A stretch of 64,000 nucleotides of DNA from Escherichia coli (GTDB taxonomy: Bacteria > Pseudomonadota > Gammaproteobacteria > Enterobacterales > Enterobacteriaceae), in NCBI RefSeq assembly GCF_029227855.1, contig NZ_CP074356.1. One strand, written 5' to 3'. A model generated the notes under the pieces. That model was not told where the DNA came from. It worked only from the letters and a program-made list of their open reading frames with translations, and did no database searches. Of the stretch, positions 4,537 to 46,164 are shown piece after piece (within the stretch, counting starts at the first letter, position 1; every line of letters starts with the position of its first letter). Position numbers and translations under genes: made by a program.

Positions 4537-5646
4537 ATGAACGAACAATCCCAGGCCAAATCACCAGAAGCCTTGCGCGCAATGGTCGCCGGGACACTGG
4601 CCAATTTTCAGCACCCAACCCTGAAGCATAACCTCACCACGCTGAAAGCGTTGCACCATGTCGCCTGGATGGACGACACGTTGCATGTGGAACTGGTTAT
4701 GCCATTCGTCTGGCATAGCGCGTTCGAAGAGTTAAAAGAGCAATGTAGCGCCGAACTGCTGCGCATCACCGGGGCGAAAGCTATCGACTGGAAACTGTCG
4801 CACAATATCGCCACCTTAAAACGCGTGAAGAATCAGCCGGGAATTAACGGCGTGAAGAACATCATTGCGGTCAGCTCCGGTAAAGGCGGCGTGGGTAAAT
4901 CTTCCACGGCGGTAAACCTGGCGTTGGCACTCGCGGCGGAAGGGGCGAAAGTCGGCATTCTGGACGCCGATATCTACGGCCCATCAATCCCCACCATGCT
5001 GGGCGCAGAAAATCAGCGTCCAACTTCGCCGGACGGTACCCATATGGCACCGATTATGTCTCATGGACTGGCAACCAATTCAATTGGTTATCTGGTCACT
5101 GACGACAATGCGATGGTGTGGCGTGGTCCGATGGCGAGCAAGGCGTTAATGCAGATGTTGCAGGAAACCTTGTGGCCGGATCTCGACTATCTGGTGCTTG
5201 ATATGCCGCCAGGCACCGGTGACATTCAATTGACACTGGCACAAAACATTCCAGTAACTGGCGCGGTAGTGGTCACCACCCCGCAGGACATTGCGTTGAT
5301 CGATGCGAAAAAAGGCATTGTGATGTTCGAGAAAGTCGAGGTTCCGGTGCTCGGTATTGTCGAGAACATGAGTGTGCATATTTGCAGTAACTGTGGTCAC
5401 CATGAACCGATTTTCGGTACCGGTGGTGCTGAGAAACTGGCTGAAAAATACCACACACAGCTGCTGGGGCAGATGCCGTTACACATCTCCTTACGTGAGG
5501 ATCTCGATAAAGGCACGCCAACGGTTATCAGCCGTCCGGAGAGCGAATTTACCGCTATCTACCGCCAGCTGGCTGACCGCGTTGCAGCTCAGCTCTACTG
5601 GCAGGGTGAAGTCATTCCAGGCGAGATTTCCTTCCGCGCGGTCTAA
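4537..5646 (+). CDS. apbC: Fe-S cluster carrier ATPase Mrp/ApbC
   Basis: ORF 4507..5646; start placed at MNEQSQAK (369 aa); Walker A GKGGVGKSST and ParA/MinD-like fold motifs. Confidence 0.9.
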   Translation: MNEQSQAKSPEALRAMVAGTLANFQHPTLKHNLTTLKALHHVAWMDDTLHVELVMPFVWHSAFEELKEQCSAELLRITGAKAIDWKLSHNIATLKRVKNQPGINGVKNIIAVSSGKGGVGKSSTAVNLALALAAEGAKVGILDADIYGPSIPTMLGAENQRPTSPDGTHMAPIMSHGLATNSIGYLVTDDNAMVWRGPMASKALMQMLQETLWPDLDYLVLDMPPGTGDIQLTLAQNIPVTGAVVVTTPQDIALIDAKKGIVMFEKVEVPVLGIVENMSVHICSNCGHHEPIFGTGGAEKLAEKYHTQLLGQMPLHISLREDLDKGTPTVISRPESEFTAIYRQLADRVAAQLYWQGEVIPGEISFRAV

Positions 5647-5675
5647 CGCCTATTAACCATTCTGGTTATTCTTCA

Positions 5676-5717
5676 TACACCGCAGAGATGTTACATTGAT
5701 GCGGTGTATTTGTTTTT
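5676..5717 (+). terminator. Rho-independent terminator after apbC
   Basis: Inverted repeat tacaccgca (5676-5684) / tgcggtgta (5700-5708) followed by tttgttttt. Confidence 0.5.
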
Positions 5718-5908
5718 GCCGCATTAATGAACACTTATTTAATACTGCGAATATTCTGCGGACCTTCGTCCGAAACTCTACAAAGTCGATTGATCGTACA
5801 GGCAATGCTTCATTATCATCCTTCGTGGCTGTGTAGTGGATGTACAGCTATAGTTTGTTATGCACTCATTCTATCCAGGCATAACCTTTACTACAGGGAT
5901 AACGTTCA

Positions 5909-6190
5909 ATGAATAAGTATTGGCTGTCAGGAATTATTTTTCTTGCCTATGGATTGGCTTCTCCCGCATTCTCTTCAGAGACTGCCACATTAGCGATTAA
6001 TGGCAGGATCAGTCCCCCAACATGCAGTATGGCTATGGTTAATGGTCAACCTCAACAGCATTGTGGTCAGTTAACGTATGATGTTGATACCCGTCATCAG
6101 GTTTCTTCGCCAGTCAAAGGTGTAACGACAGAAGTGGTTGTTGCAGGTAGCGATAGCAAACGTCGAATCGTGTTAAATCGCTACGATTAA
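5909..6190 (+). CDS. yehE: Small secreted protein YehE (DUF2574-like)
   Basis: 93-aa ORF with N-terminal signal peptide (..AYGLASPAFSSE), located upstream of the yeh fimbrial operon. Confidence 0.6.
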   Translation: MNKYWLSGIIFLAYGLASPAFSSETATLAINGRISPPTCSMAMVNGQPQQHCGQLTYDVDTRHQVSSPVKGVTTEVVVAGSDSKRRIVLNRYD

Positions 6191-6486
6191 TTTGCCACCC
6201 TGGTTTTTTAATCGAATTTAGAAAGCTGAAATCATCCGTGTGAATGATTTCAGCTTTTTTATTGATATCAATAATACCATTTACAAAAATCTGCATTAAT
6301 TAATAGATGTGATAAATATTTAATATGCTTAAGTATTTGTTGTATTTATATTGCAATAGTTAATTTGTTTTAAATCAATAAAACAATATGTTTACATTGC
6401 TGCAACTTTTTTTTGATGTGAGAAATTTGTTTCCAAGAGATACAGACTCTTAACAACCAAAAATAAATTTTATTAAGGAACATATT

Positions 6487-7029
6487 ATGAAACGTTCAAT
6501 TATTGCTGCCGCTGTCTTTTCTTCTTTTTTTATGAGCGCTGGGGTATTTGCCGCAGACGTTGATACCGGAACATTAACCATTAAAGGGAATATTGCAGAA
6601 TCTCCGTGTAAATTCGAAGCGGGTGGCGATTCAGTAAGTATTAATATGCCAACTGTACCAACCACTGTCTTTGAAGGTAAAGCTAAATACTCGACCTATG
6701 ATGATGCAGTCGGTGTAACCAGCAGCATGTTAAAAATTAGCTGTCCGAAAGAAGTTGCTGGTGTAAAACTCTCGTTGATTACCAACGATAAAATAACCGG
6801 AAACGATAAGGCGATAGCCAGTAGCAACGATACCGTGGGGTACTATCTCTATTTAGGTGATAACAGCGATGTCCTGGATGTTTCTGCACCTTTTAACATT
6901 GAGAGTTATAAAACAGCGGAAGGTCAATATGCTATTCCGTTTAAAGCAAAATACCTGAAGCTGACAGATAATTCAGTGCAATCAGGTGATGTGTTATCTT
7001 CTCTGGTTATGCGTGTGGCGCAGGATTAA
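6487..7029 (+). CDS. yehD: Fimbrial major subunit (chaperone-usher pathway)
   Basis: 180-aa ORF, signal peptide (..SAGVFAADV), conserved Cys pair and size typical of type 1-like pilins; first gene of a subunit-chaperone-usher-adhesin array. Confidence 0.8.
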   Translation: MKRSIIAAAVFSSFFMSAGVFAADVDTGTLTIKGNIAESPCKFEAGGDSVSINMPTVPTTVFEGKAKYSTYDDAVGVTSSMLKISCPKEVAGVKLSLITNDKITGNDKAIASSNDTVGYYLYLGDNSDVLDVSAPFNIESYKTAEGQYAIPFKAKYLKLTDNSVQSGDVLSSLVMRVAQD

Positions 7030-7109
7030 TAAATAAAATTTCAAGTTTCTCCAGGTAATAAACATGGCCGCTATCCCCATGGCGGCCTTTTAATTTAAGA
7101 GGCATTAAG

Positions 7110-7784
7110 ATGAAAGGATTATTTGCTTTACTCATTTCTTCTATGGTCCTTCCTGCACATGCCGGTATTGTTATCTACGGGACGCGTATTATTTACCCGG
7201 CAGAAAATAAAGAAGTGATGGTGCAGTTGATGAATCAGGGAAACCGTTCTTCGCTGCTGCAGGCGTGGATTGATGATGGTGATACGTCGTTACCACCAGA
7301 AAAAATTCAGGTTCCTTTCATGTTAACGCCACCAGTGGAAAAAATAGGGGCAAATTCCGGGCAGCAAGTAAAAATCAAAATTATGCCGAATAAACTGCCC
7401 ACTAATAAAGAGAGCATTTTTTATCTAAATGTTCTGGATATTCCACCAAATAGTCCAGAGCAAGAGGGCAAGAATGCACTGAAATTTGCAATGCAAAACA
7501 GAATCAAATTGTTTTACCGGCCTGCGGGTATTGCACCGGTAAATAAAGCGACATTTAAAAAGTTACTGGTAAATCGCAGTGGCAATGGATTGGTGATAAA
7601 AAATGACTCAGCAAATTGGGTAACGATTTCGGATGTCAAAGCTAATAATGTCAAAGTCAATTATGAAACTATTATGCTTGCCCCCTTAGAAAGTCAGAGT
7701 ATTAATGTCAAAAGTAATAATGCGAATAACTGGTATCTGACCATTATCGATGACCATGGCAACTATATTAGTGACAAAATTTAA
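7110..7784 (+). CDS. yehC: Periplasmic fimbrial chaperone (PapD-like)
   Basis: 224-aa ORF with signal peptide and PapD-like sequence pattern (..GTRIIYPAENKEVMVQLMNQG..). Confidence 0.85.
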   Translation: MKGLFALLISSMVLPAHAGIVIYGTRIIYPAENKEVMVQLMNQGNRSSLLQAWIDDGDTSLPPEKIQVPFMLTPPVEKIGANSGQQVKIKIMPNKLPTNKESIFYLNVLDIPPNSPEQEGKNALKFAMQNRIKLFYRPAGIAPVNKATFKKLLVNRSGNGLVIKNDSANWVTISDVKANNVKVNYETIMLAPLESQSINVKSNNANNWYLTIIDDHGNYISDKI

Positions 7785-7799
7785 TTGCAGGAGCTGCCT

Positions 7800-10280
7800 A
7801 TGTTGAGAATGACCCCACTTGCATCAGCAATCGTAGCGTTATTGCTCGGCATTGAAGCTTATGCAGCTGAAGAAACCTTTGATACCCATTTTATGATAGG
7901 TGGAATGAAAGACCAGCAGGTTGCAAATATTCGTCTTGATGATAATCAACCCTTGCCGGGGCAGTATGACATCGATATTTATGTCAATAAGCAATGGCGC
8001 GGGAAATATGAGATTATTGTTAAAGACAACCCGCAAGAAACATGTATATCAAGGGAAATTATCAAGCGGTTAGGCATTAATACCGATAACTTTGCCAGCG
8101 GTAAGCAATGTTTAACATTTGAGCAACTTGTTCAGGGTGGGAGCTATACCTGGGATATCGGGGTTTTTCGTCTCGATTTCAGTGTACCGCAGGCGTGGGT
8201 GGAAGAACTGGAAAGTGGCTATCTTCCACCGGAAAACTGGGAGCGGGGTATTAATGCGTTTTATACCTCTTATTATGTGAGTCAGTATTACAGCGACTAT
8301 AAAGCGTCGGGTAATAGCAAGAGTACATATGTACGTTTTAACAGCGGGTTAAACTTACTGGGGTGGCAACTGCATTCTGATGCCAGTTTCAGTAAAACAA
8401 ATAACAATCCAGGGGTGTGGAAAAGCAATACCCTGTATCTGGAACGTGGATTTGCCCAACTTCTCGGCACGCTTCGCGTGGGTGATATGTACACATCAAG
8501 CGATATTTTTGATTCTGTTCGCTTCAGCGGTGTGCGGTTGTTTCGTGATATGCAGATGTTGCCTAACTCGAAACAGAATTTTACTCCACGGGTGCAGGGG
8601 ATTGCTCAGAGTAACGCGCTGGTAACTATTGAACAGAACGGTTTTGTGGTTTATCAGAAAGAGGTTCCTCCTGGCCCGTTTGCGATTACAGATTTGCAGT
8701 TGGCCGGTGGTGGAGCAGATCTTGATGTCAGCGTGAAAGAGGCGGACGGTTCGGTAACCACCTATCTGGTGCCTTATGCAGCGGTGCCGAATATGCTGCA
8801 ACCTGGCGTGTCGAAATATGATTTTGCGGCGGGTCGTAGCCATATTGAAGGGGCGAGCAAACAAAGTGATTTTGTCCAGGCGGGTTATCAGTATGGTTTT
8901 AATAACTTATTGACGCTGTATGGCGGATCGATGGTCGCGAATAATTATTACGCGTTCACTTTGGGGACTAGCTGGAATACACGCATTGGTGCCATTTCCG
9001 TCGATGCCACGAAGTCGCATAGTAAACAAGACAACGGCGATGTGTTTGACGGGCAAAGTTATCAAATTGCCTACAACAAATTTGTGAGCCAAACGTCGAC
9101 GCGTTTTGGTCTGGCGGCCTGGCGTTATTCGTCGCGTGATTACCGGACATTTAACGATCACGTTTGGGCAAACAATAAAGATAATTATCGCCGTGATGAA
9201 AACGATATCTATGACATTGCCGATTATTACCAGAACGATTTTGGCCGTAAAAATAGCTTTTCTGCCAATATGAGCCAGTCATTGCCAGAAGGCTGGGGTT
9301 CTGTGTCCTTAAGTACGTTATGGCGAGATTACTGGGGGCGTAGCGGCAGCAGTAAGGATTATCAGTTGAGTTATTCCAACAACCTGCGACGGATAAGCTA
9401 TACCCTCGCGGCAAGCCAGGCTTATGACGAGAATCATCATGAAGAGAAACGTTTTAATATTTTTATATCGATTTCCTTTGATTGGGGTGATGACGTTACG
9501 ACGCCTCGTCGGCAAATATATATGTCTAACTCAACGACGTTTGATGATCAGGGTTTTGCCTCAAATAATACGGGATTATCGGGAACCGTTGGAAACCGGG
9601 ATCAATTTAACTATGGGGTCAACCTGAGTCATCAGCATCAGGGAAATGAAACAACAGCTGGAGCGAATTTAACCTGGAACGCGCCGGTGGCAACGGTGAA
9701 TGGCAGTTATAGTCAGTCGAGTACTTATCGACAGGCTGGAGCCAGTGTTTCAGGGGGCATTGTCGCCTGGTCGGGTGGCGTTAATCTGGCGAACCGTCTT
9801 TCCGAAACGTTTGCAGTGATGAATGCGCCAGGAATTAAAGATGCTTATGTCAATGGGCAAAAATATCGCACAACAAACCGTAATGGAGTGGTGGTATACG
9901 ACGGAATGACACCTTATCGGGAAAATCACCTGATGCTGGATGTGTCGCAAAGCGATAGCGAAGCAGAATTGCGCGGTAACCGGAAAATTGCCGCACCTTA
10001 TCGCGGCGCGGTTGTACTGGTTAATTTTGATACCGATCAGCGCAAGCCCTGGTTTATAAAAGCGTTAAGAACGGATGGGCAACCATTAACGTTTGGTTAT
10101 GAAGTCAATGATATCCATGGTCATAATATTGGCGTTGTCGGCCAGGGAAGCCAGTTATTTATTCGCACCAATGAAGTTCCGCCATCGGTTAATGTAGCAA
10201 TTGATAAGCAACAAGGACTTTCATGCACAATCACCTTCGGTAAAGAGATTGATGAAAGTAGAAATTATATTTGCCAGTAA
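7800..10280 (+). CDS. yehB: Outer-membrane fimbrial usher
   Basis: ORF 7785..10280; start placed at MLRMTPLASAIVA (826 aa); size and signal peptide typical of FimD/PapC ushers. Confidence 0.85.
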   Translation: MLRMTPLASAIVALLLGIEAYAAEETFDTHFMIGGMKDQQVANIRLDDNQPLPGQYDIDIYVNKQWRGKYEIIVKDNPQETCISREIIKRLGINTDNFASGKQCLTFEQLVQGGSYTWDIGVFRLDFSVPQAWVEELESGYLPPENWERGINAFYTSYYVSQYYSDYKASGNSKSTYVRFNSGLNLLGWQLHSDASFSKTNNNPGVWKSNTLYLERGFAQLLGTLRVGDMYTSSDIFDSVRFSGVRLFRDMQMLPNSKQNFTPRVQGIAQSNALVTIEQNGFVVYQKEVPPGPFAITDLQLAGGGADLDVSVKEADGSVTTYLVPYAAVPNMLQPGVSKYDFAAGRSHIEGASKQSDFVQAGYQYGFNNLLTLYGGSMVANNYYAFTLGTSWNTRIGAISVDATKSHSKQDNGDVFDGQSYQIAYNKFVSQTSTRFGLAAWRYSSRDYRTFNDHVWANNKDNYRRDENDIYDIADYYQNDFGRKNSFSANMSQSLPEGWGSVSLSTLWRDYWGRSGSSKDYQLSYSNNLRRISYTLAASQAYDENHHEEKRFNIFISISFDWGDDVTTPRRQIYMSNSTTFDDQGFASNNTGLSGTVGNRDQFNYGVNLSHQHQGNETTAGANLTWNAPVATVNGSYSQSSTYRQAGASVSGGIVAWSGGVNLANRLSETFAVMNAPGIKDAYVNGQKYRTTNRNGVVVYDGMTPYRENHLMLDVSQSDSEAELRGNRKIAAPYRGAVVLVNFDTDQRKPWFIKALRTDGQPLTFGYEVNDIHGHNIGVVGQGSQLFIRTNEVPPSVNVAIDKQQGLSCTITFGKEIDESRNYICQ

Positions 10281-10295
10281 TAGTCAGGTGGTTCT

Positions 10296-11330
10296 ATGAA
10301 AATTCGCATAATGCTATTTATATTAATGATGATGGTTATGCCAGTGAGCTATGCAGCATGTTATAGTGAGTTATCTGTTCAGCACAATTTGGTTGTTCAG
10401 GGGGATTTTGCACTTAGTCAAACACAAATAGCGACATATGAGCATAATTTTAATGATTCGTCATGCGTGAGTACAAATACTATCACCCCTATGAGCCCGT
10501 CGGATATTATTGTTGGACTTTATAACGATACCATTAAATTAAATTTACATTTTGAATGGACCAATAAAAACAAAATCACGTTGTCAAATAATCAGACCAG
10601 TTTCACCAGTGGTTATTCGGTAACGGTGACACCTGCGGCCAGTAATGCAAAAGTGAATGTTTCTGCGGGGGGCGGCGGTTCAGTAATGATTAATGGTGTT
10701 GCAACATTATCCAGTGCTTCATCATCGACACGCGGGAGTGCTGCAGTACAATTTTTACTGTGTTTATTCGGTGGCAAGTCATGGGATGCATGTGTAAATA
10801 GCTACAGAAATGCATTGGCACAAAATGCAGGTGTCTATTCCTTTAATCTGACATTGTCATACAACCCGATAACCACAACCTGCAAACCGGACGATTTATT
10901 AATTACTTTAGAGAGTATTCCCGTTTCACAATTACCAGCCAAAGGTAACAAAGCAACAATAAATAGTAACAAAGGGGATATTGTTCTGCGTTGTAAAAAC
11001 TTATTAGGTCAACAAAATCAAACATCACGGAAAATGCAGGTGTATTTATCAAGTTCTGACTTGTGGGGCAGTAGTAACACGATCCTGAAAGGTGCGGAAG
11101 ATAATGGCGTAGGATTTATTCTTGAAAGTAATGGTTCGCCAGTCACACTTTTAAATATCACTAACAGCAGTAAAGGATATACAAATTTAAAGGAAGTTGC
11201 TGCGAAGTCAAAACTTACAGATACAACGGTTTCAATTCCGATAACTGCCAGTTACTACGTCTACGATACAAACAAAGTTAAATCTGGCGCACTGGAGGCA
11301 ACCGCATTAATCAACGTGAAATACGACTAA
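10296..11330 (+). CDS. yehA: Fimbrial adhesin-like subunit
   Basis: 344-aa ORF with signal peptide; terminal gene of the chaperone-usher operon. Confidence 0.75.
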   Translation: MKIRIMLFILMMMVMPVSYAACYSELSVQHNLVVQGDFALSQTQIATYEHNFNDSSCVSTNTITPMSPSDIIVGLYNDTIKLNLHFEWTNKNKITLSNNQTSFTSGYSVTVTPAASNAKVNVSAGGGGSVMINGVATLSSASSSTRGSAAVQFLLCLFGGKSWDACVNSYRNALAQNAGVYSFNLTLSYNPITTTCKPDDLLITLESIPVSQLPAKGNKATINSNKGDIVLRCKNLLGQQNQTSRKMQVYLSSSDLWGSSNTILKGAEDNGVGFILESNGSPVTLLNITNSSKGYTNLKEVAAKSKLTDTTVSIPITASYYVYDTNKVKSGALEATALINVKYD

Positions 11331-11385
11331 TAACAAGCAAGACGAGCAAGTGGCTAATAATAAAAATAATAAGGTGTCTGCATTT

Positions 11386-11413
11386 CCCCCTCTCTTCGAG
11401 GGGGCTTTTTTTT
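11386..11413. terminator. Bidirectional rho-independent terminator between yehA and rcnB
   Basis: Stem ccccctc / gaggggg (11386-11404) flanked by an A-run upstream and a T-run downstream. Confidence 0.5.
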
Positions 11414-11750
11414 AGCGATGATAAAAAATCTCACCGTCGTAGGCTTTAATGATTTTACCGTCGGTGTCGCTGATCAACACGTACGCGCCACCCATATAGG
11501 TCCAGTGTGTCCCGGCATCAGGCGCGGGCAGGTTACGTAACTGCCACTGCTTAATGTTGTACTCATCGGTGCGGTACATCTCTGGGACGGTATCGCCTGG
11601 TTTGAAATGCTTAAAGTCAGCAATGAAACTGCTTAACTCATACTTAGAAATTCCCGAGGTATTGGTCGAACCCGCGGTGGCTGGTGCGGCCCAGGCGGCA
11701 CTGGTAACCAGCAAAAGCACACCCAGCAACATCTTATTTTTAATGGTCAT
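11412..11750 (-). CDS. rcnB: Periplasmic nickel/cobalt homeostasis protein RcnB
   Basis: ORF 11412..11930; start placed at MTIKNKMLLGVLLLVTSAAWA (112 aa, signal peptide); immediately downstream of rcnA. Confidence 0.85.
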   Translation of the reverse strand: MTIKNKMLLGVLLLVTSAAWAAPATAGSTNTSGISKYELSSFIADFKHFKPGDTVPEMYRTDEYNIKQWQLRNLPAPDAGTHWTYMGGAYVLISDTDGKIIKAYDGEIFYHR

Positions 11751-11968
11751 AAACTCTCCACTTTGGGGATCTGTAATATCAGTCGCATATCTTTCCTGCC
11801 ATACAATATAACTGACAAGCGATATTTTGTTAGTGATCCCATGATTTCGTAAAAAGTGTAAATGAAAGGATGCCCTAAAAGCATCCTTAGCGAGCAGAGA
11901 GTCAGCGGAAATAGCTGATTTAAGAATCATCCTGGGCTGAAGATAACATGCAAGCCTAAAGGATTGAG

Positions 11969-12793
11969 TTATCGCATTATGCCCATGAAGCCATGTACGC
12001 CCATATACACACCAACTAAGCCAATCAACAGACTGGAAAAATAGGGAGCGCGTTTAGCGAGAGTGTTAAATCCGCTCCAGCGTTTTGCGACCTGCTGAAC
12101 GCTGATTGCTGCGCCAACGCCTACGGTGACAAGCGTTAACGCCAGGCCGAGGCTGAAACTGACGACCAGTGTTGCGCCCAGTGTCAGGGCTTTCAACTGA
12201 ATGCAAATCAACAGCACGGTAATTGCTGCCGGGCAGGGGATAAGGCCACCGGTTAAGCCAAATAGCAAAATTTGCCAGTTGGTGACCTCTCTACCATCAA
12301 AGCGTCGTTTAATGTCATTGGCATGGGCTCGTGCATGGGCATCCTGATACTCGCCATGTTCGTGATGGTGATGATGTCCATGGTCGTGGTGATCTTCGTG
12401 ATCGTGGTGATGATGCTCATGATCATGCTCGTGCATATTCTCCAGCCAGTTGCGTTCGCCGCGCCAGGTACGCCAGAACATCCAGAACGCGGTGCTAATA
12501 ATGATCACTGCGGAAATCAACTGGAGCCACGGTTCTGCTGATTGAGCAGTAAAGCGTTTGCTGATCACCATCCCGCCAAAGGCAATTAACCAGACCACTG
12601 CGGTATGCGAAATAGTTGCTGCCAGTCCAAGCATCACCGCCTGTTTAATGGTGCCTTTGATGGCGATGATAAACGCCGCCATCATCGTTTTTGAGTGCCC
12701 CGGTTCCAGGCCATGAAGCGCACCAAGTAAGATGGCGCTGGGGATGAAGAACCAGGCGTTTCCTTGCTGAAGAAGTGTTGTAAATTCGGTCAT
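11969..12793 (-). CDS. rcnA: Nickel/cobalt efflux transporter RcnA
   Basis: 274-aa membrane protein with an extremely His-rich loop (HEHDHEHHHHDHEDHHDHGHHHHHEHGE). Confidence 0.9.
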   Translation of the reverse strand: MTEFTTLLQQGNAWFFIPSAILLGALHGLEPGHSKTMMAAFIIAIKGTIKQAVMLGLAATISHTAVVWLIAFGGMVISKRFTAQSAEPWLQLISAVIIISTAFWMFWRTWRGERNWLENMHEHDHEHHHHDHEDHHDHGHHHHHEHGEYQDAHARAHANDIKRRFDGREVTNWQILLFGLTGGLIPCPAAITVLLICIQLKALTLGATLVVSFSLGLALTLVTVGVGAAISVQQVAKRWSGFNTLAKRAPYFSSLLIGLVGVYMGVHGFMGIMR

Positions 12794-45016: not shown

Positions 45017-45169
45017 TGGAGGAATTATGAAACACTATCGGGAATCGTCTGAATGGCGGGCACATTTGCGAGCACGCATCCAGTAATAACACATGAAACT
45101 ATTTTATCTACGCGTTAGCGATAGACTACGTGCATGGCGAAAGGAGGTAAGCCGATGATTTCAGCGGGA

Positions 45170-45310
45170 CGCTGAAACGGGAAAGCCCCTCCCGAGGAAG
45201 GGGCCATAAATAAATAAGGAAAGGGTCATGATGAAGCTACTCATCATCGTGGTGCTCTTAGTCATTAGCTGGCCAGCTTACTAAGACTACCAGGGCGGGG
45301 GAAACCCCGC
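45170..45310 (-). ncRNA. sib: Sib-family antisense sRNA (antitoxin) covering ibs copy 1; ends approximate
   Basis: Sib antitoxins are encoded fully antisense to ibs; minus-strand hairpin gcccctc/gaggggc at 45184-45204 followed by a U-rich stretch could be the 3' end. Confidence 0.5.
45228..45284 (+). CDS. ibs: Ibs-family type I toxin (18 aa, MMKLLIIVVLLVISWPAY)
   Basis: Small hydrophobic ORF preceded by aaggaaagggtc SD; matches the Ibs toxin family pattern. Below the ORF-track length cutoff. Confidence 0.75.
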   Translation: MMKLLIIVVLLVISWPAY

Positions 45311-45497
45311 TCTACCCTCACTCCTGAAAGTATGCCTTCACGATAAGATTGTCAATCTGCAGGCTTTGCAGTCTGCGATCCTGCCAGCAAATATTCTTTG
45401 CGAGACGTTACGCAATAATCACACTGGAAACTATTTTATCCGCAAGTCAGCGATAGACTGCATACAGGGCGAAAGGAGGTAAGCCGACGATTTCAGC

Positions 45498-45638
45498 GGG
45501 ACGCTGAAACGGGAAAGCCCCTCCCGAGGAAGGGGCCTTAAATAAGGAAAGGGTCATGATGAAGATACTCATCATCGTGGTGCTCTTAGTGATTAGCTAC
45601 CCAGCATACTAAGACTACCAGGGCGGGGGAAACCCCGC
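45498..45638 (-). ncRNA. sib: Sib-family antisense sRNA covering ibs copy 2; ends approximate
   Basis: Position inferred by repeat periodicity relative to copy 1. Confidence 0.45.
45556..45612 (+). CDS. ibs: Ibs-family type I toxin (18 aa, MMKILIIVVLLVISYPAY)
   Basis: Second repeat unit; same SD and ORF architecture. Confidence 0.75.
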   Translation: MMKILIIVVLLVISYPAY

Positions 45639-45826
45639 TCTACCCTCACTCCTGAAATTATGCCTTCACGATAAGATTGTCAATCTGCAGGCTTTGCAGT
45701 CTGCGATCCTGCCAGCAAATATTCTTTGCGAGTCGTTACGCAATAATCACAGAGGAAACTATTTTGTTCACGCGTTAGCGATAGACTGCATTCAGGGCGA
45801 AAGGAGGTAAGCCGACGATTTCAGCG

Positions 45827-45967
45827 GGACGCTGAAACGGGAAACCCTCTCCCGGAGAAGAGGGCTTTTAATAAGGAAAGGGTTATGATGAAGCACGTCA
45901 TCATACTGGTGATACTCTTAGTGATTAGCTTCCAGGCTTACTAAGAACACCAGGGGGAGGTGGAAAC
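45827..45967 (-). ncRNA. sib: Sib-family antisense sRNA covering ibs copy 3; ends approximate
   Basis: Position inferred by repeat periodicity. Confidence 0.45.
45885..45944 (+). CDS. ibs: Ibs-family type I toxin (19 aa, MMKHVIILVILLVISFQAY)
   Basis: Third repeat unit; variant C-terminus (FQAY). Confidence 0.7.
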   Translation: MMKHVIILVILLVISFQAY

Positions 45968-46164
45968 CTCTCCCTAACCCTCACTCCTGAAATTATGTCA
46001 CTCCGCCCTTAGTGTCAATCGACGGCTCTCCGTTCTTGCGAGGCGAATAGCAAAATTTTCTGCGCCGCCGGGCCTAATTCTGAAAGTTTCTTCGTTTGCT
46101 CTTATTTCATTATTGCAGTCGGTATGATACCGGACCTCAATAATTCTCTAAGAAAGGATTTCTT

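Follow-up and report, generated by a model that had tools for sequence, protein, structure and literature searches.

An intact chromosomal yehDCBA chaperone-usher operon carrying a Yeh-type adhesin in Escherichia coli

We analysed a stretch of 64,000 nucleotides of Escherichia coli DNA (contig NZ_CP074356.1 of RefSeq assembly GCF_029227855.1; the window in what follows) with regard to the four fimbrial genes that follow a long adenine- and thymine-rich (AT-rich) spacer behind yehE. We are highly confident that this region is the chromosomal yehDCBA chaperone-usher fimbrial operon in the form that carries a Yeh-type adhesin, and that it is fully intact. The operon is already known and well studied, and its annotation is correct and ordinary. 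An earlier description made from the letters of the window (the sequence-only reading) had proposed a complete subunit-chaperone-usher-adhesin array with four intact frames. The order and identities of the genes are upheld by the open reading frames, by Pfam and NCBIfam, by the Prokaryotic Genome Annotation Pipeline (PGAP) and by the K-12 annotation. The frames likewise stand as intact, given that re-translation produced no internal stops, that the lengths are those of K-12 and that PGAP calls the genes intact in E. coli JNEC-KY178. Coordinates of all features are collected in Table 1.

The genes yehD, yehC, yehB and yehA are co-oriented and equal in length to their counterparts in K-12, O157:H7 and genome NDM_12_14482, and a Shine-Dalgarno-like sequence lies 5' of each. 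The guanine-plus-cytosine (GC) content of the operon is 42.5%, compared to 50.6% for the window and 50–54% for the flanking genes. In a megablast search with positions 5600–11500 the locus was matched in 5,423 of 5,426 complete E. coli genomes, with at least 80% query coverage in 5,224 of them (>96%). The best match was JNEC-KY178, in which yehE, yehD, yehC, yehB and yehA are annotated with apbC and rcnB at either side. Over 50 kb the window differs from this genome by four single-nucleotide polymorphisms (SNPs) and one indel, of which one SNP and the indel fall in the yeh locus. K-12 MG1655 is annotated with the same layout (b2112–b2108), and each yeh gene is 96–97% identical to its K-12 counterpart at the nucleotide level.

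The encoded proteins comprise a two-domain chaperone with anchoring residues, a three-domain usher and a secreted pilin with a Fimbrial domain. YehD scored 31.2 bits against Pfam Fimbrial (cut-off 25.6), begins with a signal-like sequence and contains two cysteines; it is 99% identical to K-12 YehD and 100% identical to WP_000830468.1. YehC matched PapD_N (expectation value, E, of 7.5e-41) and PapD_C (E 5.4e-8). In PapD, Arg8 and Lys112 are the subunit-anchoring residues; YehC keeps an arginine at mature position 8 and, within RIKLFYRP, a lysine at mature position 115, equivalent to Lys112. YehB matched PapC_N, Usher (E 2.4e-193, over the full profile from 1 to 549) and PapC_C, and scored 1749 bits against NCBIfam PRK15217 (cut-off 933). 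The Yeh usher has been assigned to the gamma-4 clade, together with ushers such as Yad, Stc and Abp (PMC12778044, PMC7098969).

YehA scored 675 bits against NCBIfam PRK15252 (cut-off 395). Its receptor-binding domain is identical to PDB 9N4G at 169 of 173 positions (E 6e-107) and keeps S49, W143 and Y150 in mature numbering (S69, W163 and Y170 of the precursor). The crystallised Yeh adhesin domain has an alpha-helical flap and binds pectin, as shown for the UTI89 protein only (PMC12778044). Under UTI89 naming the product of yehD is YehA and that of yehA is YehD (PMC12778044).

Two classes of adhesin, only 36% identical as proteins, are found at this one locus: among the 5,426 genomes a full-length Yeh-type adhesin occurs in 4,605 and a Yhl-type adhesin in 650, with a median of one copy per genome. 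PDB 8V9V ('YhlD') and the adhesin encoded at the O157:H7 yeh locus are identical over 171 aligned residues. Genome NDM_12_14482 shares with the window an identity of more than 99% in yehD, yehC and yehB and of about 98% in yehE, yet carries the Yhl-type adhesin; the breakpoints are sharp, one at the yehB stop (~10260–10280) and the other some 85 nt short of the yehA stop (~11245). In E. albertii and E. whittamii, the other backbone is paired with a Yeh-type adhesin. From these breakpoints and from the mixtures of backbone and adhesin, it follows that the adhesin acts as an exchangeable cassette. Exchange of Yeh and Yhl cassettes at a single locus affects how prevalence figures are to be read.

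We also compared the window with O157:H7 for synonymous divergence (dS) and for the ratio of nonsynonymous to synonymous substitution rates (dN/dS). The dS values were 0.67–1.24 for yehE, yehD, yehC and yehB and 0.08–0.10 for the flanking apbC and rcnB. Over deeply diverged haplotypes dN/dS was 0.02–0.09 for yehD, yehC and yehB (0.02–0.07 for yehD) and 0.25–0.45 for yehE; for the window and O157:H7 the corresponding values were 0.05–0.08 and 0.25. These ratios show purifying selection that has kept the operon in two deep haplotypes. The roughly ten-fold synonymous divergence of the O157:H7-type yehE–yehB haplotype relative to its flanks points to an ancient haplotype that may have been balanced or introgressed. 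Mosaic yeh loci occur in Escherichia sp. MOD1-EC7003, E. albertii and E. whittamii.

A different view, that the operon is a decaying relic and 'cryptic' in the sense of non-functional, would account for its low expression in laboratory K-12 (PMC5797941) and for scattered IS1 insertions and frameshifts in certain strains and in Shigella. However, the low dN/dS across deep haplotypes, the intact, full-length state of the operon in about 97% of complete genomes, the conservation of its regulatory DNA across genera and the published phenotypes of orthologues all argue against decay, and we regard it as extremely improbable. As a separate observation, Shigella flexneri has many YehD variants of 159–174 amino acids labelled 'type 1 fimbrial protein, partial', which suggests erosion of the operon in Shigella.

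Table 1. Positions of yeh genes, protein domains and control-region features in the window
Feature	Coordinates	Strand	Description
yehE	5909-6190	+	93 amino acids, signal peptide; Pfam DUF2574 (E 1.6e-51)
yehE-yehD spacer ('leader')	6191-6486		296 bp; 24.3% GC vs 50.6% in the window
Terminator-like hairpin of yehE	6220-6265	+	16-bp stem, 8-nt loop, then U-run
Variable distal AT-rich segment	6266-6334		identity 59% to O157:H7 haplotype, 39-56% to lineages outside Escherichia
Counterpart of K-12 box for phosphorylated ArcA (ArcA-P)	6366-6408		four direct repeats, 11-bp spacing; 41/43 identical to K-12 site
Length-polymorphic T-tract	6407-6414	+	T8 in the window
Escherichia-invariant 42-bp block	6415-6456	+	42/42 in O157:H7 and E. 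albertii; 41/42 in E. whittamii
yehD Shine-Dalgarno AAGGA	6475-6479	+	GGA at position of CsrA binding in the yeh 5' untranslated region of enterohaemorrhagic E. coli; mapped by homology only
yehD	6487-7029	+	180 amino acids; major pilin; Pfam Fimbrial
yehD-yehC GC-rich hairpin	7066-7087	+	9-bp stem, -15.7 kcal/mol, z = -3.4
yehC	7110-7784	+	224 amino acids; PapD-like periplasmic chaperone; PapD_N and PapD_C
yehB	7800-10280	+	826 amino acids from annotated ATG (831 from TTG at 7785); outer-membrane usher
yehA	10296-11330	+	344 amino acids; two-domain tip adhesin
YehA receptor-binding domain	10356-10874	+	residues 21-193; match to PDB 9N4G
YehA pilin domain	~10875-11327	+	Pfam Fimbrial, residues 184-344
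Operon intrinsic terminator	11386-11413	+	7-bp GC stem, then T8

Ahead of yehD, the sequence-only reading had described a very AT-rich leader of about 300 bp. Its composition is borne out, as the lowest-GC 296-bp stretch of the entire 64 kb begins at 6204 and just 0.07% of such stretches equal the spacer in AT-richness. The extent of the leader needs correction, however: its first ~75 bp belong to the 3' end of yehE and its terminator, which leaves about 220 bp (6264–6486, 21.5% GC) as the actual control region of yehD. Across other lineages and genera the spacer measures 275–299 bp. Within it, the variability of the distal segment (6266–6334) would fit a constraint on composition, of the kind exerted by H-NS-type proteins, and not on specific sequence. 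Next comes a conserved core (6335–6406), with identities of 96% to O157:H7 and of 82% to both Citrobacter farmeri and contig L015, despite a YehD identity of just ~30% in the latter two. Judged by alignment, it is with the published K-12 ArcA box that the cross-genus conserved part of the leader coincides; the K-12 site (AAGTTGCCGCAATGTAAACACATTGTTTTATTGATTTAAAACA, from the supplement of PMC3798270) was compared as its reverse complement. The direct repeats and their spacing are present in the window, binding at the site has support from chromatin immunoprecipitation (ChIP) in K-12, and the window's two SNPs in the box fall within or beside the weakest repeat.

The 42-bp block downstream (6415–6456) is invariant or nearly invariant among the Escherichia loci compared, where the adjacent genes of the window and O157:H7 differ by a dS of 0.67–1.24, and is unconserved outside the genus. 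It is probably the −10 region and the start of the 5' untranslated region (UTR). Scanning for consensus promoters returned fewer promoter-like sites than were found in shuffled sequences. A search for the 10-bp high-affinity H-NS motif (TCGATAAATT, up to two mismatches) was uninformative: the window has 86 such sites where about 68 would be expected, and only two of the 86 are in or near the leader.

Between the core and the 42-bp block lies a T-tract, which is one of only two homopolymers of at least eight nucleotides in the window and the sole indel relative to JNEC-KY178 in 50 kb. The tract is T7 in JNEC-KY178, T6 in K-12 and CT5 in O157:H7, with T6 in most of the strains examined, and the exact 74-nt context of the window's tract was found in none of the 5,426 genomes. 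T6, T7 and T8 recur on unrelated backgrounds: T8 on a K-12-like one (CM2010-0578/1), T7 in O55:H7 and T6 in O169:H41, the last together with the window's SNP. Three Citrobacter-like lineages and most Escherichia preserve a distance of nine bases from the ArcA box to a GTG motif (AAC-N9-GTG). Taken together, the sequences suggest that the T-tract is a mutational hot spot in a spacing-sensitive position, with assembly error or neutrality also possible.

A stronger proposal would make the tract a site of mutational tuning or phase variation, where changes in length alter promoter geometry (through the length of the spacer or the run that is transcribed first) and T8 is a low-expression or OFF allele. 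The uniqueness of the indel in the comparison with the closest genome, the independent origin of T6, T7 and T8 on at least three haplotype backgrounds and the conserved AAC-N9-GTG spacing are consistent with this proposal. Moreover, the tract adjoins the ArcA box and candidate −35/−10 elements; in T6 alleles TTGCKG-17-TGaGAAATT is the top-scoring proximal candidate, and T8 makes its spacer 19. However, six to eight Ts make a short run for slippage to be efficient, assemblies often contain errors in homopolymer length and the position of the tract relative to the promoter is a guess, and we consider such tuning decidedly unlikely. Length variation in the tract could explain differences in yeh expression from strain to strain.

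Control by a classical fimbrial phase switch, whether a fimS-like invertible promoter or a pap-like Dam/Lrp switch at GATC sites, is more improbable still, to the point that we give it almost no weight. An imperfect 15-nt inverted repeat (6257–6271 and 6369–6383) does surround 97 bp of the leader, but such repeats are expected in DNA of 22% GC. We searched the 5,426 genomes with a synthetic version of the segment in inverted orientation; its best full-length match was 82.8% and no inverted form was found. The spacer (6191–6486) contains zero GATC sites, and no recombinase gene lies next to the yeh locus.

The ends of the transcription unit are marked by hairpins. The terminator-like hairpin behind yehE has a folding energy of −19 kcal/mol (z = −6.5), matched by none of 200 shuffles, and the pairing of its stem is preserved through compensatory changes in K-12, O157:H7, E. 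albertii and C. farmeri. At the other end, the terminator downstream of yehA is assigned to yeh and not to the convergent rcnB because its U-run is on the + strand only. Between yehD and yehC there is a further hairpin (7066–7087), the stem of which is kept across all Escherichia loci compared; in the O157 lineage it stands without a U-run. A role as an attenuator or stabiliser is more likely than full termination, which agrees with the single yeh transcript reported in enterohaemorrhagic E. coli (EHEC; PMC11287998). The 239-amino-acid yehC annotated in K-12 begins inside this hairpin. In the window an additional C in the loop abolishes that frame and leaves the 224-amino-acid reading frame, with an AAGAGG site, as the sole possibility, which supports the shorter yehC start. 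A scan of 5500–12000 against Rfam gave no match at E ≤ 1.

Regulation and function of the operon have been studied in orthologues. In K-12, yehDCBA is a cryptic chaperone-usher operon of the H-NS regulon, up 3.6-fold when SlyA is over-produced (PMC5797941), and it lies inside a silenced region of extended protein occupancy (PMC11230228). Direct repression by ArcA has been reported in K-12 from ChIP followed by sequencing (one replicate only), with 5.4-fold derepression (PMC3798270). In EHEC, yeh is transcribed as one transcript from its native promoter, is induced by ethanolamine and is promoted by CsrA, which shifts the yeh 5' UTR in gels in a GG-dependent manner (PMC11287998). A five-gene construct from O157 Sakai produced thin flexible fibres by electron microscopy and adhesion to HeLa cells when induced (PMC7098969), and the Yeh pilus contributes to gut colonisation (PMC12778044). 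The sequence-only reading had called the leader typical of H-NS-silenced cryptic fimbriae and the operon a candidate for conditionally expressed adhesion. Silencing agrees with the K-12 literature and with the AT-richness of the locus (24.3% GC in the leader, 42.5% in the operon), but 'cryptic' undersells an operon under strong purifying selection. Conditional adhesion, too, is upheld by the orthologues, with their ethanolamine induction, CsrA, ArcA repression, fimbriae and pectin binding.

We infer that control by H-NS, SlyA, ArcA and CsrA, fimbriation and pectin binding would apply unchanged here. Transcription would then begin within the ~220-bp region of 21% GC past the yehE terminator and end at 11386–11413. 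H-NS-type nucleoid proteins would normally silence the yehD promoter region, with SlyA as the proposed antagonist, and ArcA-P bound at the direct repeats (6366–6408) would add further repression. CsrA would act on the yehD 5' UTR at the ribosome-binding site. As expected of the chaperone-usher pathway, Sec would export the YehD pilins and the tip adhesin YehA, which would be folded and capped by YehC and, by means of YehB, polymerised into a thin flexible gamma-4 fibre, from which the helical-flap receptor-binding domain of YehA would bind pectin.

Several points weigh against carrying this account over to the window. The regulatory and functional data are all from other strains. The ArcA study gives 'no TSS' (transcription start site) for yehD (PMC3798270), and our scan with position weight matrices returned several weak promoter candidates and no clear promoter. 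The T8 tract makes an otherwise conserved spacing 2 bp longer than in most strains, so that this allele may be expressed differently. In addition, the adhesin carries four substitutions relative to the crystallised protein (T21S, M25I, N74K and L138F in mature numbering), of which L138F is in the flap.

Upstream of the spacer, yehE lies between apbC and the pilin gene in every lineage examined, namely E. coli, E. albertii, E. whittamii, Escherichia sp., C. farmeri, C. freundii and contig L015. Loci of other genera were located by exact-protein look-up, while the locus search by YehE alignment returned Escherichia only; YehE homologues also occur in E. fergusonii, Salmonella, Klebsiella and Superficieibacter. 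Profile comparison with hhalign aligned residues 1–45 of the YehE family to 1–47 of the YehD family (probability 96%, E 3.9e-9), over the signal peptide, a TLTI-G-I motif and the first cysteine, and the YehE C-terminus (G-x11-Y-D) resembles that of YehA. Whole-length homology to pilins was not found: Pfam gives DUF2574 and no Fimbrial hit, and the hhalign alignment is confined to the N-terminal residues. A phmmer search of 1.84 billion representatives with YehE returned only DUF2574 proteins of about 90 amino acids and spurious matches to repeat proteins, with no full-length pilins, and BLASTP gave no match between YehE and YehD. AlphaFold models were of low confidence, with a predicted local distance difference test score (pLDDT) of 59 for YehE alone and of 53 for a YehC-linker-YehE fusion (paired alignment of 11 rows), in which the chaperone itself was unfolded.

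These observations bear on whether the functional unit is five genes, yehEDCBA, with YehE (a 71-residue periplasmic protein when mature) contributing to the formation of the Yeh pilus, for instance as a terminator bound by the chaperone, as an anchor or as a modulator of assembly. In addition to the N-terminal profile alignment, a weak Pfam cross-hit and the C-terminal parallel with YehA, the proposal draws on the invariable presence of yehE as a neighbour across genera at a spacing of 275–299 bp and on its dN/dS below 1. The sole construct reported with visible Yeh fimbriae, that from Sakai, begins exactly at the yehE ATG (PMC7098969), one study terms 'yehEDCBA' an operon (PMC11230228), and IMG names some YehE homologues 'type 1 fimbria pilin'. 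Set against this are the strong terminator with a covarying stem between yehE and yehD, the failure of Pfam Fimbrial, phmmer and BLASTP to connect YehE with pilins, the poor AlphaFold models, and the fact that the N-terminal similarity includes the signal peptide. Moreover, the K-12 operon under a constitutive promoter is said, in a secondary citation, to have raised biofilm formation, and yehE may have lain outside that promoter. We find a five-gene unit possible but on balance doubtful, and regard the four genes yehDCBA as the operon.

With regard to the origin of YehE, it could be a pilin-derived 'mini-subunit' that has lost the immunoglobulin-fold middle and is co-inherited with Yeh/Stc-type operons across the Enterobacteriaceae. 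What it would have kept is the signal peptide, a donor-strand-like motif at the N-terminus that includes the first cysteine, and at the C-terminus a strand of pilin type with Gly-14 and a penultimate Tyr. In such a role it could act within the periplasm on the YehC/YehB machinery, for instance as a terminator, an anchor or an assembly modulator. We think this rather unlikely; if true, YehE would be a previously undescribed kind of chaperone-usher accessory.

Two features elsewhere in the window came up in the comparison with JNEC-KY178. In that genome the interval between metG and a DUF4132 gene holds, just past metG, a gene for an IS200C transposase, corresponding by homology to 1732–2190 of the window; K-12 has yehF beside metG. 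Further downstream, ~45065–45997 holds three Ibs-type type I toxin genes in tandem (ibs/sib repeats), with repeats that are 83–89% self-similar.

The outcome is thus the correct annotation of a known, core-associated adhesin operon, with little import beyond bookkeeping. The mapping of the ArcA box, the 42-bp block, the T-tract, the Yeh/Yhl cassettes and YehE as a constant partner are side results, which we offer as leads and not as findings.

The closest known system is yehDCBA of K-12 (b2111–b2108), which is yehABCD of UTI89. The window shares with it the apbC-yehE...rcnB locus, the four genes and their lengths, the 96–97% nucleotide identity and an adhesin of the 9N4G type. It differs in having T8 instead of T6, two SNPs in the ArcA box, a yehC of 224 amino acids only, and T21S, M25I, N74K and L138F relative to 9N4G. 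The Yhl pilus (8V9V) and the O157:H7 yeh operon sit at this same locus and share its five-gene layout and conserved leader core, and the adhesin is almost unchanged over its last ~27 residues. Here, however, the adhesin as a whole is 36% identical and the entire O157:H7 locus forms a deep haplotype; the receptor of Yhl is on colonic epithelium, compared to pectin for Yeh (PMC12778044).

Salmonella Stc (stcABCD) and the Citrobacter operons belong to the same locus and the same usher clade, a core-associated fimbrial type (PMC3559732). The Citrobacter loci keep the order metG-apbC-DUF2574-pilin-chaperone-usher-adhesin-rcnB, but identity falls to ~30% in the pilin, to 33–47% or undetectable levels in the adhesin and to 62–75% in the usher. 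Like type 1 (fimAICDFGH) and P pili (pap), the Yeh system is assembled by the chaperone-usher pathway, carries an adhesin of two domains at its tip and has a hairpin behind the gene for the major subunit. It is set apart from them by its minimal four genes, which include neither adaptor nor minor subunits and are under neither a fimS-type nor a GATC/Lrp switch, and by the alpha-helical flap of its adhesin, a feature absent in FimH and PapG (PMC12778044).

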